NCBI GenBank assembly: GCA_045629985.1
Contig: JAZQSI010000196.1
Location: 1 to 33,642, forward strand
Direction: 5' to 3'
DNA length: 33,642 bases
From: Eubacteriales bacterium
Lineage (GTDB): Bacteria; Bacillota; Clostridia; Oscillospirales; JAAYXM01
Both the position numbers and the translations under genes were made by a program. Every line of letters begins with the position of its first letter. The stretch's first letter is position 1. Of this stretch, positions 9,219 through 31,399 are shown in pieces. Under the pieces are notes generated by a model. It made no database searches. It was not told the DNA's origin and saw nothing but the letters and a program-made list of their open reading frames with translations.

Positions 9219-9391
9219 CGAATGTTTTTTTACCGTCGGCTTGTAGCCGAGGTAACTTTTTGCGAAAAGATAACCTCGTAGCCCTCCGCTACGCATCGCC
9301 GCAAGTTTCTGCAATGTGTCAGTTGTTCAAAATAACAAAAAAGAGCCAATGTTTGGCTCTTTTTTGTGTTCCGGAGTTTTTTAACATCCGC
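9219..9391. repeat. Hairpin-rich element sharing its right end with the three-way-junction repeat
   Basis: Right part TAACAAAA-hairpin-TTTTGTGTTCCGGAG..TTTTAACAT matches 23946-23995; several further short hairpins lie to its left. Confidence 0.5.
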
Positions 9392-9393
9392 GA

Positions 9394-9522
9394 AGCGGAT
9401 AGGTAAAACGTTTTGCAACGTGCAAAAGACGCCCGAAGTAGTACCGTGTGTACGTCAAGGGTGTCTTTTGTGCGGAGCAAAAGGACTTTCCTTTTGCGGT
9501 GCGGAGCGTTTTAACATCCGCT
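9394..9522 (+). repeat. Structured dispersed repeat (MITE/REP-like or ncRNA), copy A
   Basis: Shares GGATAGG, CCCGAAGTAGTAC-loop-GTACGTCRAGGGTG and CGGAGCGTTTTAACAT with 23862..24001; same fold. Confidence 0.8.
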
Positions 9523-10618
9523 ATTTTATATACTTTTTTATCATTGCGTAAGCATCATCTTTTGTCGGTTCATATATTCCGCGCATTGTGCTTCCGCCCT
9601 CATATCCTACGCGCATATACTTCATTGCGCGCTCGCGCTCGAATCTTCTGTCGCAGGGGACTGCTCGCTCGATAAGCGCGCGGAACTCTTCGGCATTCTT
9701 CACTCCGCAGAGGCGGTATGCGCGCATAACCTTATCCTCGTTCACGCGGGCGGCGTATTCCACAAAATCAGGGAGGAAGTACGCATTCGCCTCGCCGTGA
9801 GACATATGTTCAAAATACGTAAGCGGATAACCAAACGAGTGGACAAAGCTTGTGCCTGTTATGGAAATTACCATACCTGCAAGCATTGAGCCGTAAAGAA
9901 GCCTTTCGCGCAGGTTTTCATCAAGCCTTCCTTCCGCAAGGGCGCGAAGACCGCGTCCGACATAAACCATCGCCTTTTCCGCAAGAGCATCGGAGACAAC
10001 CGTTGCCGCCTTTGCAAAATAGCCCTCAATCGCATGAGAAAGGGCATCGACAGCAGTTGCGTTTGTTGTGCTCTGCGGGAGAGTTACCGTATATGATGCA
10101 TCAAGAAGCGCGACTTTCGGGAAGAGTTTTTCGCCCTTGAGGGTCTTCTTGTTCTGGATTCTGTGATAAGTGAGGACGGAATACTGCGTGACCTCGCTAC
10201 CCGTTCCCGCCGTCGTCGGGATTGCGATAACGGGAAGGGGCTCACTCTTGCACTCACCATCGTAAAGCGTTTCGGGGGTAAGATGCGGATTTGCGGCAAA
10301 ATATGCCGCCGCCTTTGCCGCATCGAGCGGACTTCCGCCGCCGATTGCGATAACAAAATCGGACTTTTCCTCGCGGGCAAGCTTTCCTGCCGCATAGCAG
10401 GTCTCAACCGTCGGATTCTGCTCTACCTTGTCAAAAACAGCCATTTTGATTCCCTGGCTGATGAGTGCGCCCTTGACATCGTCAAATGCGCCGCACAGAC
10501 GCGCAGAACGCTCACCGCAGACGATAAGTGCGCGCTTGCCAAACTGCGAATAGTCAAACTCCGCCGCTATTTTCTTTCCCGAATATACCTTGACGGGATT
10601 AAAGAACAAACTTGTCAT
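9521..10618 (-). CDS. Iron-containing alcohol dehydrogenase family protein
   Basis: AIGGGSPLDAAK, IPTTAGTGSEVT, DALSHAIEGY, HSFGYPL, HGEANA. Confidence 0.92.
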   Translation of the reverse strand: MTSLFFNPVKVYSGKKIAAEFDYSQFGKRALIVCGERSARLCGAFDDVKGALISQGIKMAVFDKVEQNPTVETCYAAGKLAREEKSDFVIAIGGGSPLDAAKAAAYFAANPHLTPETLYDGECKSEPLPVIAIPTTAGTGSEVTQYSVLTYHRIQNKKTLKGEKLFPKVALLDASYTVTLPQSTTNATAVDALSHAIEGYFAKAATVVSDALAEKAMVYVGRGLRALAEGRLDENLRERLLYGSMLAGMVISITGTSFVHSFGYPLTYFEHMSHGEANAYFLPDFVEYAARVNEDKVMRAYRLCGVKNAEEFRALIERAVPCDRRFERERAMKYMRVGYEGGSTMRGIYEPTKDDAYAMIKKYIK

Positions 10619-22680: not shown

Positions 22681-23826
22681 CTATTTTTTCTTCAGTTTTT
22701 CAAAAAAGCTCTTGCGTTCGGTGTACGATTCGTCTCCGACAGATTTTGCAAACTCATGCAAAATGTCTTTCTGCTTTTTGCTTAAATTCTTCGGAACTTC
22801 GATATTCACGCGCACGAGCTGGTCACCGCGCCGCGAGGAATTAAGCACGGGTACGCCCTTGCCGCGGAGACGGAATACCGTTCCCGTCTGCGTTCCCTCG
22901 GGGATAGAATACTTGACCTTACCGTCAAGCGTCGGAACTTCGATTTCAGCACCGAGAACTGCCTGAGTGAATGTAATCGGAACTTCGCAGTGGATGGTCG
23001 TGCCGTCGCGCATGAGGATGTGATGCGGGCGGATAGAAATCGTAACGAGAACGTCACCTGACGGGCCGCCGTTTGAGCCGGCATTTCCCTCGCCGCGAAG
23101 CGGAATGGTCTGTCCTTCATCAATTCCCGCAGGAACTTTGATGGAGAGCTTCTTTGAAACCCTCTCTTTTCCCGAACCGCCGCAGGATTTGCACGGGGTC
23201 TTTATAATCTTTCCCGAACCGCCGCACGTGGGACATACGCTTGAGCTTGAAATAACACCGAGCGGGGTGCGGCGCGTTGTCTTTACCGAACCCGCACCGT
23301 GGCAGGTGGAGCAGGTCTCGGCAGTTGTTCCTGCTTCTGCACCGCTTCCGCCACACTTCGAGCATTTATCCGTCTTTGTTATGTTGATTTCCTTTGTACA
23401 GCCGAACGCCGCCTCTTCAAACGAGAGAACGAGGTTTACGCGAAGGCTCTCGCCGCGCTGGGGAGCGTTTCTTCTCGATGCTCCGCCACCGCCAAAACCG
23501 CCGCCAAAGAACGAGCCGAAGATATCGCCGATATCAAAATCATCAAATCCGAAACCGCCGCCATATCCTCCATATCCGCCACCTGCGCCGAAGTTCGGGT
23601 CAACGCCCGCGTGACCGAACTGGTCGTACTTCTGACGCTTTGAGGAGTCGGAAAGGACTTCGTATGCTTCGTTGACTTCCTTGAACTTCTCTTCAGCTTC
23701 TTTATTGTCTTTATTAAGGTCGGGGTGGTACTTCTTTGCAAGCTTGCGGTAAGCCGACTTAAGCTCGGCATCAGTAGCTGTTTTCGCCACACCCAACACT
23801 TCATAGTAATCTCTTTTATCCGCCAT
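22681..23826 (-). CDS. dnaJ: Chaperone DnaJ
   Basis: J-domain with HPD, G/F-rich linker, four CxxCxGxG repeats. Confidence 0.98.
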
Positions 23827-23861
23827 AGTTCATCTCCCTGTTCCTTGGGGGTTTCTATTTT

Positions 23862-24001
23862 TCGGGGATAGGAAAGACGCTTTGGAATGGGGAAACCGCA
23901 CCCGAAGTAGTACATATAGAGTACGTCGAGGGTGAGGTTTGCCCATAACAAAAGGCATTTTTCAATGCCTTTTGTGTTCCGGAGCGTTTTAACATTCCCG
24001 A
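23862..24001 (+). repeat. Structured dispersed repeat, copy B (dnaK-dnaJ intergenic)
   Basis: Same conserved loops and fold as 9394..9522 with different stem sequences. Confidence 0.8.
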
Positions 24002-25897
<1,896 letters not shown>

Positions 25898-26419
25898 CTA
25901 ATTTGCAACTTTTACGATTGCGGGGCGGATAACGCGCTCACCGAGCTTGAAGCCCTTCTGGAAAACTTCTGAAACCGTGTTTTCGCCGAATTCTTCGTTA
26001 TCCTCGTGCATTACCGCGCTGTGGAAGTTCGGGTCAAACGCCTCACCCTGCGGTGCAATCACTTCAACTTTGAGTTTTTCAAGAGTTGAGTTAAGCTCAG
26101 CGAAGATAAGCTCGACGCCCTTTTTGTAGTTTTCATCGGTCGAGGGAGTTGCTATCGCGCGCTCCATATTGTCATAAACTGCGAGGAATGCCGAAATCGT
26201 TGCCGCCGTAGCGTCACCGAAGAGCGCTTCTTTCTCGCGGGTAGTGCGCTTACGGAAGTTGTCATACTCTGCAGCGAGGCGAAGGTATTTATCGCGCTCC
26301 GCCGCGAGCTCCTCTTCCTTTTTTTCAAGTTCGGTTTTCTCGGGAGCTGCTTCTGCTTCCTTTTCCTCTGTCTCCGGAGTTTCAGGCGCAGTTTTTGCCT
26401 TTTTTTCTTTTTCTGCCAT
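25898..26419 (-). CDS. grpE: Nucleotide exchange factor GrpE
   Basis: RLAAEYDNFRKR, FDPNFHSAV, QKGFKLGERVIRPAIVKVA. Confidence 0.97.
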   Translation of the reverse strand: MAEKEKKAKTAPETPETEEKEAEAAPEKTELEKKEEELAAERDKYLRLAAEYDNFRKRTTREKEALFGDATAATISAFLAVYDNMERAIATPSTDENYKKGVELIFAELNSTLEKLKVEVIAPQGEAFDPNFHSAVMHEDNEEFGENTVSEVFQKGFKLGERVIRPAIVKVAN

Positions 26420-26434
26420 CTATTTTATACCTCC

Positions 26435-27490
26435 TCAGATGTCGTTAAAGAAAGAATCGCGAAGAAGCTTGTTAAAGCCTTCTATAAAATAGCTCAAGTT
26501 CGCCGCGACTTTTGCGTAATCCATTCGTCTCGGACCGACGATTCCTATAACGCCCTGCTTCTTTCCGCCAAGGTCATACTTGCCGTAAACGATTCCTGCG
26601 TCTTTTAAGACGTCATCGTCATTCTCCGTTCCTATCGAGAAGCGAATCTGTGCAGGGTTTTCCTCTTCCGCGAAATGCTCTTTCGTGTGGCGTATGATGC
26701 CTTCTTTATCCGTAAGATAAGAAAGAAGCTCCTGCGCCTTTTCGGGATCGCGGTATTCGGGGTGATTGAGGATTCTCGGAATGCCGTCGAGATAAACGTC
26801 TCCGCCCTGGTTTTCGTCAAGCACCTCGCCTGCAAAATCAGAAACCGCGCTCACAAGCTCGGAAAGCCTTCCCGCTTCGCTCACCAGCCTCTTTATAAGA
26901 GAAAGGGAAATCTCGTCGAGCGTTTTTCCCGTGAGCGTGTGGTTTAAAAGATGCACAACTGCCGCAAGCTCTGCTTCATCGGGCGAGAACGAAAGGCGAA
27001 TCCTCTTATTTCTTATAAGACCCGAGCTCGTTACTATAACCGCGATTGCCACGGTAGGCTCAATGAGGAAAACGTCAAACTTCTTGACCGTCTCCGAGGA
27101 GATTGTCGGCATAAGCGTATAAGTAGTATAATTCGTAAGCTGTGAAACGAGCCTTCCGAACTCGCGAAGCATTCTCTCAAGCTCGCGCATCTGCGTGTTG
27201 AGAGCGGTGTTTATCGCATCCGCCTCGCGTTGGGAGAGCGCGTAGTTCTGCATAAGCTCGTTTACATATAAGCGGTACCCTGCCGTTGACGGCACGCGAC
27301 CTGCGGAAACGTGCGGCTGTTCGAGGAAGCCGAGCTCCTCGAGCTCCGACATCTCGTTTCTGATGGTCGCAGGGGAGATATCAAGACGGCTTCGCGCCGC
27401 AATGATTTTCGAGCCTACCGGCTCTGCGTTTTCGATGTATTCATCAACAATGGCCTTGAGGATTCTCTTCTTTCTGTCGCTCAGGCTCAT
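26435..27490 (-). CDS. hrcA: Heat-inducible repressor HrcA
   Basis: EPVGSK, SPATIRNEM, QPHVSAGRVPS, GIVGPRRMDY. Confidence 0.97.
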   Translation of the reverse strand: MSLSDRKKRILKAIVDEYIENAEPVGSKIIAARSRLDISPATIRNEMSELEELGFLEQPHVSAGRVPSTAGYRLYVNELMQNYALSQREADAINTALNTQMRELERMLREFGRLVSQLTNYTTYTLMPTISSETVKKFDVFLIEPTVAIAVIVTSSGLIRNKRIRLSFSPDEAELAAVVHLLNHTLTGKTLDEISLSLIKRLVSEAGRLSELVSAVSDFAGEVLDENQGGDVYLDGIPRILNHPEYRDPEKAQELLSYLTDKEGIIRHTKEHFAEEENPAQIRFSIGTENDDDVLKDAGIVYGKYDLGGKKQGVIGIVGPRRMDYAKVAANLSYFIEGFNKLLRDSFFNDI

Positions 27491-30380: not shown

Positions 30381-30434
30381 ACTTGACACGTTACGACAAC
30401 AATGAACTCAATCTTTAAGGAGGCGACAAATTGT

Positions 30435-30644
30435 ATGAACTATCCGGGCATTTTGCCGCGGGCGGTGTGCGGCAGTCCGGATTTTCAGACTCTGCCTGAG
30501 TACTTCTGCCCTGTATGCGGTGCGCAGCTTGACGGGGGAGACCGACTCGCAGAGAACAAGGACGGGGATACGGTAGGGTGCGACTACTGTATTCGGTATT
30601 ACGAAATATGGGAGACAAACAGCAATGATAATTACAGACATTGA
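30435..30644 (+). CDS. Small Zn-ribbon protein, phage-early-gene-like
   Basis: CPVCG...VGCDYC pair of CxxC motifs; RBS AAGGAGG at 30417-30423. Confidence 0.7.
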   Translation: MNYPGILPRAVCGSPDFQTLPEYFCPVCGAQLDGGDRLAENKDGDTVGCDYCIRYYEIWETNSNDNYRH

Positions 30645-30975
30645 AAGAGAGATTAATGACATTCTCGGCATCAGACCCGAGGATAAACCGCCGGCAACCC
30701 CACAGCGACGTGGAAGACCGCCGCTTGAAAAACAACCCATCTGGTCGCTCAACTTCTATGAGCCGACGAAAAACATTACATATGCAGTTATTTCCATGTG
30801 CATCAAGGAAGACTTCGCCCAAAGCCTCGACGAGCTCGCAACGCGGGTTTCGCGATGTAAGGAGCGCCCGAAGAACGAGTGTCTCAAAGTTCTCCGCGAG
30901 CTTCGCGAATGCGGTAAGCTGGGGTATTACGACGATTATACACTGCGTTTTCACACCTGGAAAGGTAGGTTCTGA
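30625..30975 (+). CDS. Hypothetical protein with AT-hook-like RRGRPP and possible C-terminal winged helix
   Basis: RBS GGGAG; overlaps the upstream gene and ends 4 nt before the next start. Confidence 0.6.
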   Translation: MIITDIEREINDILGIRPEDKPPATPQRRGRPPLEKQPIWSLNFYEPTKNITYAVISMCIKEDFAQSLDELATRVSRCKERPKNECLKVLRELRECGKLGYYDDYTLRFHTWKGRF

Positions 30976-30979
30976 GGTT

Positions 30980-31399
30980 ATGGACTGGAGGCTATGTGCC
31001 GAAGACGACCTTCGGCGATACAAACAAATGAAAATCGGCATCCTCAACTCAAAAGACCGCCTTCGCCTTATCTCCGAGACTATCCGCTCACCAAAGGCGA
31101 GCTTTTCCAAGCACAGTAAGAGAATGGATTCTGACCTCATAAACGCTATGGTTGAGAAGGAGCGTCTTGCAAATAACATAAATTCCGCAGAGAGGCTTCT
31201 CGCTATCATTGATCGGGGGCTTGACTCTTTGACGGATGAGGAAAGGCAGCTTCTTGAGAAGTTTTATATGTCAAATTCCCCCTCAAAAATGCGGCATCTT
31301 TCCGAAGAGTTCGGTTATGATCCGCGCACGCTTTACCGCATGCGCGATCGCGCACTTGCAAATTTCACTATCGCTATGTACGGCCTTGAGCTGTCGTAG
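30980..31399 (+). CDS. ArpU/RinA-like phage transcriptional activator
   Basis: N-terminal DLRRYKQM helix, coiled coil, then sigma-region-4-like IDRGLDSLTDEERQLLEKFY...LSEEFGYDPRTLYRMRDRALANF; 139 aa from ATG 30980. Confidence 0.78.
   Translation: MDWRLCAEDDLRRYKQMKIGILNSKDRLRLISETIRSPKASFSKHSKRMDSDLINAMVEKERLANNINSAERLLAIIDRGLDSLTDEERQLLEKFYMSNSPSKMRHLSEEFGYDPRTLYRMRDRALANFTIAMYGLELS

Follow-up and report, generated by a model that had tools for sequence, protein, structure and literature searches.

Two segments, A and B, of a 33,642-nt contig of a Eubacteriales bacterium (the window, i.e., the whole stretch of DNA that was analyzed) are copies of a multi-copy non-coding repeat, which lies at gene ends in uncultured gut Clostridia, in or beside a terminator hairpin. 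The family multiplies within genomes, is patchily distributed among close relatives, and retains its fold through compensatory base changes. Its target sites are intrinsic terminators at gene 3' ends, which brings the R end up against the convergent gene's stop codon. The repeat is new, yet of a kind already known from the small structured repeats of other bacteria. Probably, it is a non-autonomous mobile repeat of the REPIN/BOX/SPRITE type that colonizes terminator sites by means of a putative mobilizer reading its structure.

An earlier note on this DNA had described A and B as two copies sharing one three-way junction on the + strand. Both copies were found at their places (Table 1), and minimum-free-energy folding recovered all of the stems and loops that had been described. 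The unit is (R')-L-P3-H2-R, in which L and R are imperfect inverted repeats closing the three-way junction. In the + strand folds of both copies we found an AGG/AAC internal loop, a G-U-rich stem P2 of 13–14 bp, and a long P3 arm with a tip of the form CCCGAAGTAGTAC-loop-GTACGTCRAGGG. The energies of these folds were −67.2 (A) and −73.7 kcal/mol (B), with z of −9.5 and −11.2, respectively; shuffled sequences gave −35.9 ± 3.3 (A) and −34.7 ± 3.5 (B), and none of 200 shuffles equaled either copy. Folds of the minus strand were weaker (−47.5 kcal/mol for A and −57.0 kcal/mol for B). Between A and B, 8 of the 48 predicted pairs were altered on both sides.

Strict placement at terminators and stop codons, a terminator-like second hairpin (H2), and a half-copy (R') upstream of A are points that the earlier note missed. 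H2 of A was not flagged in the terminator scan. The scan did flag hairpin H1, with its 15 pairs and T-rich tail, on the minus strand, where it would be expected to end the Fe-ADH transcript. R' also turned up as a partial match in sequence searches of the source genome; when it was added to the folded sequence, the three-way junction stayed the minimum-energy fold.

Table 1. Copies A and B, their parts, and the adjoining genes in the window.
Feature	Coordinates	Strand	Description and evidence
H1	9335–9367	both	resembles a bidirectional terminator (hairpin stem between an A-run and a T-run); upstream of A
R'	9366–9391	+	extra 3'-half copy (GTGTTCCGGAGTTTTTTAACATCCGC), 2 nt before A; 2 mismatches to the 18-nt R motif
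Copy A	9394–9522	+	full element L-P3-H2-R; covariance model, 136.6 bits, E 5.6e-33
Closing stem P1 of A	9394–9400 with 9516–9522	+	AGCGGAT/ATCCGCT; fold
P2 of A	9404–9417 with 9500–9513	+	fold
P3 arm of A	9419–9474	+	fold
P3 internal loop of A	9435–9440 / 9454–9458	+	GAAGTA / GTCAA; fold
P3 tip stem of A	9441–9444 with 9450–9453	+	GTAC/GTAC; fold
H2 of A	9477–9497		GCAAAAGGA-CTT-TCCTTTTGC, weak terminator-like hairpin; fold
Fe-ADH gene	9521–10618	−	its TAG stop and the final bases of copy A overlap
dnaJ	22681–23826	−	follows copy B when read along the operon
Copy B	23862–24001	+	full element L-P3-H2-R without R', in the dnaK-dnaJ spacer; covariance model, 141.6 bits
Closing stem P1 of B	23862–23869 with 23993–24001	+	TCGGGGAT/ATTCCCGA; fold
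P3 arm of B	23887–23946	+	loop GAAGTA 23904–23909 / GTCGA 23925–23929; fold
H2 of B	23948–23975		ACAAAAGGCATT-TTTC-AATGCCTTTTGT, terminator-like on both strands; fold
dnaK	24002–25825	−	TAA stop adjoins the R end of copy B

Structure is kept over sequence, as had been proposed from A and B: covariation was strong in the alignments of both paralogues and relatives. In an unfitted MAFFT alignment of five source-genome paralogues, 96.4% of the cells pair, compared with 38–55% when the partners were slid; 20 of the 51 pairs were changed on both sides, a number reached in none of 500 shuffles, and L and R pair in 100% of the cells of helix 1. Among 36 distinct model-fitted sequences from relatives, 92.8% of the cells pair and 43 of the 51 pairs were changed on both sides. 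The claim that G-U pairs favor the + strand was also borne out, with 216 G-U/U-G against 66 A-C/C-A combinations in 95 distinct sequences, counted on alignments that were fitted to the + strand model and contained many near-identical rows. Because of this excess, the + sense is taken as the favored strand; the same excess is the one observation that suggests recognition of the repeat as a single strand.

The P3 tip was invariant in the five aligned full copies of the source genome. The core CGA(N)G/CGAG is kept even in distant subfamilies, in which Watson–Crick pairs take the place of UA/GU in the P3 loop (by eye); as read by eye, this core may form tandem G-A pairs with one bulged base. Loop A of the hairpin ribozyme, the sarcin–ricin loop, and the k-turn were compared with the P3 loop, and none of them fits fully; no ribozyme match in Rfam was found for the window. 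Coding potential was rejected by eye: the minus strand starts with ATGTTAAAACG in some copies, frames and lengths vary, and the stems covary. Most of the matching assembled metatranscriptome contigs from four runs were dnaK of other organisms; two short RNA contigs (23976–24135 and 23982–24135) reach the R half of B, and none spans the element.

Members of the family were sought with BLAST and nhmmer and with a covariance model derived from five copies of the source genome, an assembly of 1.74 Mb in 219 contigs with 85% completeness. Further copies, for which the earlier note had proposed a covariance model search, were found both in this genome and in its relatives. Seven full + strand copies were present in the source genome (A, B, and one on each of the contigs C140, C98, C33, C24, and C81); they were only about 70–78% alike, and the source genome thus gives no sign of recent movement. 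The covariance model had matches in 13 of the 18 other genomes of the genus (up to 35 per genome), in none of the 13 genomes of other genera in the family, and in 3 of the 29 genomes of other families in the order. Many of the matches in relatives were at contig ends, with equal scores. The pattern of the P3 tip occurred in 96 stretches of species-representative genomes, and the 80 listed of these were all on contigs titled as Oscillospiraceae, Eubacteriales, or Clostridia MAGs. No match was found in viral contigs, plasmids, or phages, and a phage, plasmid, or viral origin was rejected on these grounds. No Rfam family matches the A/B fold: Rfam 15 gave no matches at the gathering threshold across the whole window, and at E ≤ 10 there were sub-threshold chance hits, mostly to the H1 hairpin beside A, with a few across parts of B.

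Both copies in the window are located at minus-strand stop codons, in agreement with the earlier note: according to the ORF list and Pfam, A overlaps the TAG of the Fe-ADH gene and B abuts the TAA of dnaK. The C-terminus of Fe-ADH (MIKKYIK) is unchanged relative to that of a relative without the element (MIKKYIR), and thus the element starts exactly behind the stop codon. The region 22681–27490 on the minus strand is an ordinary hrcA-grpE-dnaK-dnaJ heat-shock operon, the sole oddity of which is copy B. By ORF scan, six of the seven full copies in the source genome have their R end −2 to +4 nt from a stop codon on the opposite strand; the seventh, at a contig edge, has the same placement by eye. 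In the first alignment, the R end was at an opposite-strand stop codon in 18 of 28 rows, i.e., at 12 of 21 distinct sites after our grouping of orthologous rows; in the remaining rows, the stop codon was 25–180 nt away or there was no ORF of 100 aa. Six of the seven source-genome copies come after a hairpin and a T-rich tract on the + strand (by eye). The spacer between convergent genes is little more than a bidirectional terminator, so that an insertion just behind it abuts the stop codon of the other gene.

Many terminator-like hairpins of the genus share the stem AAAGAGCCG...CGGCTCTTT, with contigs C98, C81, and C24 among the loci. This stem occurs as H2 in the element and also in apparently native terminators; therefore, the hairpin itself may be a dispersed module.

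Filled and empty sites were compared, and the element was present in some relatives and absent from others at the dnaK-dnaJ, Fe-ADH, and C81 sites. The dnaK-dnaJ spacer holds the full element in six genomes, H2 and R only in three, and unrelated sequence in ten. Full copies orthologous to B thus occur in five other genomes of the genus, and H2 of B is retained together with R in relatives without L and P3. At the Fe-ADH site, no element was found behind the stop codon in the 10 relatives shown, and the two read in detail (G005 and G013) have plain terminator hairpins there. At the C81 site, one relative is empty and has the native terminator, a T-run, and then the stop codon; the source genome has the same native terminator followed by R'-L-P3-H2-R; and a third genome keeps a remnant in which R' is partial and L is cut down to its first 20 nt. 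It follows from this comparison that R' belongs to the inserted block at C81. R' precedes the unit in four of the seven source-genome copies (A, C140, C24, and C81), and R' and R of one locus share local variants (C24, by eye). Partial forms were also found: H2 and R without L and P3 at position 5932 of C24, and R preceded only by a hairpin, past a stop codon on C191. In the A/B subfamily, neither a target-site duplication nor a direct repeat was seen by eye at the flanks, and there is no conserved terminal sequence, the outer P1 pairs differing between copies. An IS-derived MITE was rejected, given the variable outer P1 bases, the lack of direct repeats at the flanks, and the lack of a recurrent transposase nearby.

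The dnaK-dnaJ spacers of other congeners (loci L147, L149, L154, and L155; L150 and L152) hold different repeats. One such spacer type contains runs of GCAGAAT/GCATAAT-like units, and another contains a long palindrome on AAGGCTTCCCCTTGAGGGGAAGC; additional repeat families of this genus may be represented here.

Two related families, X and Y, share P3 with the A/B repeat. Family X is 266–268 nt long at 26 of the 28 distinct sites found, the other two being shorter forms of 154 and 166 nt, and has the inverted termini GGGRYTGTAGC...GCTACAGCCCC (15 nt, with 12 of 15 matching by our count). In all three filled/empty comparisons (L096, L101, and L085 against L208/L206, L228/L229, and L232/L233/L234/L235), the 267-nt element sits exactly at the position of the native terminator stem-loop of the empty allele: the A-run and the T-run are kept, the native hairpin is gone, and no target duplication was found. 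At one family X site, the native hairpin of the empty allele itself resembles the L/R stem of the element. Family Y is 277–280 nt long; at about 24 of its left junctions, a terminator hairpin precedes it (by eye). It comes after the terminator of a co-oriented gene, and one congener has about 30 near-identical copies (L094, L102, L106, L099, and L081 among the loci). Three of the five complete Y copies are flanked on both sides by a direct duplication, 23–30 nt long, of the whole terminator hairpin, and its length tracks the size of the hairpin; in the other two, the two flanking hairpins differ. The downstream hairpin of one Y copy (L099) closely resembles a flanking hairpin of another Y locus, with a few mismatches, and the likeness stops at the T-tract. 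Such precise replacement or duplication of the hairpin points to structure-guided targeting of terminators.

No mobilizer of the repeat was identified among the ORFs of the window, the neighbors of the copies, or candidate genes across the genus. The ORFs of the window are housekeeping genes: 27 were scanned against Pfam, 26 were assigned to a family, one (30418–31209) had no match, and no transposase, reverse transcriptase, or integrase was found among the matches, as the earlier note had concluded for the window. Among the neighbors of the copies, the only recurrent protein families were AraC paralogues, along with false reading frames that run through the repeat. The proposed search for HUH/RAYT, IS, and reverse transcriptase genes was fruitful in that a RAYT-like gene and a group II intron were found in the source genome; neither, however, tracks the repeat. 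An IS200-type Y1 transposase was rejected, its strong matches being mostly in genomes without the repeat, as was a TnpB/IS605 element with omega RNA, for which PF07282 had no match in the source genome (85% complete). The reverse transcriptase of group II introns was rejected as a mobilizer, with homologues in only 2 of the 19 genomes of the genus. The intron of the source genome (contig C68; L236:593–2460, minus strand) encodes a 422-aa reverse transcriptase/maturase in which no endonuclease domain was seen. Immediately before it are a hairpin and TTTTTT, and a convergent ORF has its stop codon right at the 3' end of the intron. This placement looks like the target behavior of class C introns. 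The group II intron models of Rfam match C68, whereas they gave no hit in the window.

One candidate for a mobilizer is the single RAYT-like Y1 HUH gene of the source genome, which encodes 168 aa on the minus strand of contig C132 (14376–14879; L171:1447–1953) and is preceded by a small HTH gene. That the repeat is a REPIN proper, moved by this transposase on single-stranded DNA, is a special case of the mobile-repeat reading, and one that we regard as decidedly unlikely. It would account for the L/R inverted repeats around a hairpin-forming spacer, the singlet half-copies, and the A/T runs at the flanks, which are known features of REPINs (PMC3337134), and the RAYT-like gene is present in four of the five genomes with the most repeat matches. 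However, the score of this gene to NF047646 (REP_Tyr_transpos) is 64 bits, below the family cut-off of 80 bits, and the gene is flanked neither by the repeat (no covariance model match beside it at E ≤ 0.01) nor by any other: its flanks had no match elsewhere in the genome, only a 36-nt inverted self-match being found in the upstream flank. Among 10 RAYT-like loci, one has a copy of the repeat 1 kb away, beyond another gene. Homologues were found in 7 of the 19 genomes of the genus, and their distribution does not follow that of the repeat: five genomes have both, two have the gene without the repeat, nine have the repeat without a RAYT-like gene being found, and three have neither; IS200-type Y1 genes, as mentioned, are strongest where the repeat is missing. 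In congener G004, there were about 10 matches to the RAYT-like gene, several of them at contig ends, and thus it seems to be multi-copy there. The orientation of the copies also speaks against a REPIN proper. By the usual skew rule, the C-rich strand is the leading-strand template, and IS200/IS605 elements use the lagging-strand template. The folded strand of the window is the C-rich one; over the source-genome copies, the folded sense was on the C-rich strand in five of seven contigs and the skew was near zero in two, a sample that is too small in number and length of contigs and is confounded with gene orientation.

Alternatively, selection could maintain the repeat at each site as an RNA module acting in cis within 3' UTRs and operon spacers. 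Its fold and H2, co-transcribed with the upstream gene, would then set termination or read-through (e.g., the dnaK:dnaJ ratio) or guard the 3' end of the mRNA, and mobility would matter only for the arrival of the module. We consider this rather unlikely, though several observations fit it. Copy B is kept in the dnaK-dnaJ spacer of six genomes with compensatory changes, H2 and R stay where L and P3 were lost, the element starts 0–4 nt past the stop codon, and H1 is terminator-like in the sense of the Fe-ADH gene, so that copy A would be inside that 3' UTR; in addition, REP-type repeats are reported to be attenuators and to influence co-transcribed genes (PMC3049150). Against this reading, the strand that folds better and carries the G-U pairs is antisense to the adjacent gene, L and P3 are dispensable in three genomes, the Fe-ADH site lacks the element in the 10 relatives shown, and the number of matches ranges from 0 to 35 between congeners. 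The preference for the + strand fold would suit a family of trans-acting small RNA genes on the + strand, with L-P3 ending at H2; the T-rich sequence behind H2 could end such an RNA, and the P3 tip is invariant. This explanation is highly improbable: no sigma-70-like promoter was found at A or B, the partial forms and the pile-ups at contig ends are typical of repeats, and R lies beyond H2 yet covaries with L, which means that R must be part of the folded molecule.

The earlier note had posed a non-autonomous mobile element and an unannotated ncRNA as alternatives; of the two, it is the mobile element that is supported by the number of copies, the covariation, the lack of an Rfam match, and the filled and empty sites. 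As a mobile repeat, the element would be copied or moved as a folded + sense single strand of RNA or DNA, and a putative trans-acting factor would read its hairpin structure, not its end sequence. Once placed, it would be part of the neighboring gene's 3' UTR or inter-cistronic RNA, where H2 could act as a terminator or attenuator. Copy B persists at one site in six species with compensatory change, a pattern equally compatible with neutral persistence and with selection for a host function.

As for the route of spread, we tentatively suggest copying from terminator to terminator, guided by the hairpin structure and the A/T tracts of terminators and not by end sequence, although we would not call this route likely. 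It is suggested because family X swaps the stem-loop between the A-run and the T-run, family Y duplicates the hairpin, and the hairpin of L099 resembles that of another locus. Such copying might be performed by an integrase cutting both feet of the palindrome, like in the duplication of CRISPR repeats, or might proceed without a transposase, by template switching at stalled forks or transcripts with the A/T tracts serving as microhomology.

Small structured repeats (REP, BIME, BOX, Correia, and SPRITE) are common, and the way in which most of them spread is unsettled. The family described here offers clean filled and empty alleles in which a repeat precisely replaces or duplicates an intrinsic terminator hairpin. 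It also matters for the annotation of gut Clostridia MAGs: such repeats break assemblies, sit in 3' UTRs and inside the dnaK-dnaJ operon, and could be misread as riboswitch-like elements or sRNA genes.

Among known systems, the class C-like intron on C68 resembles A/B-type copies in its position behind a hairpin and TTTTTT with the 3' end abutting a convergent stop codon; it differs in that the window contains no intron RNA domains and the A/B repeat has no ORF. REPINs, as described by Bertels and Rainey (2011, PMC3337134), are extragenic and multi-copy, with two imperfect inverted repeats closing a hairpin, the spacer of which folds. The A/B repeat is likewise extragenic and multi-copy (seven copies in the source genome), has two inverted repeats closing a hairpin, and shares with REPINs decaying half-copies and flanking A/T runs that suggest use as attenuators. 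Unlike that of REPINs, the A/B spacer branches into a three-way junction that includes an invariant arm; in addition, the repeat does not flank the RAYT-like gene, which does not follow its distribution, and the copies keep a constant position with respect to stop codons and terminators.

Pneumococcal BOX elements are modular composites in which the end modules pair and the inner module folds alone (Croucher et al. 2011, PMC3049150). BOX modules may be missing, the elements are co-transcribed with neighboring genes, and there is no linked transposase, all of which recalls the A/B family; the tandem boxB modules and IS-like terminal inverted repeats of BOX are both absent from it. The pneumococcal SPRITE repeat is described in that text as resembling a Rho-independent terminator and as showing strong enrichment where convergent genes end. 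The likeness to BOX and SPRITE, as given in these descriptions, is one of architecture and placement alone. With SPRITE, the A/B family shares a terminator-like repeat at the 3' ends of convergent genes; however, SPRITE as described there consists of one 18-bp duplex and a U-rich tail, whereas the terminator-like hairpin of the A/B family lies inside a larger junction, and a relative of the A/B repeat, family X, replaces the native terminator.
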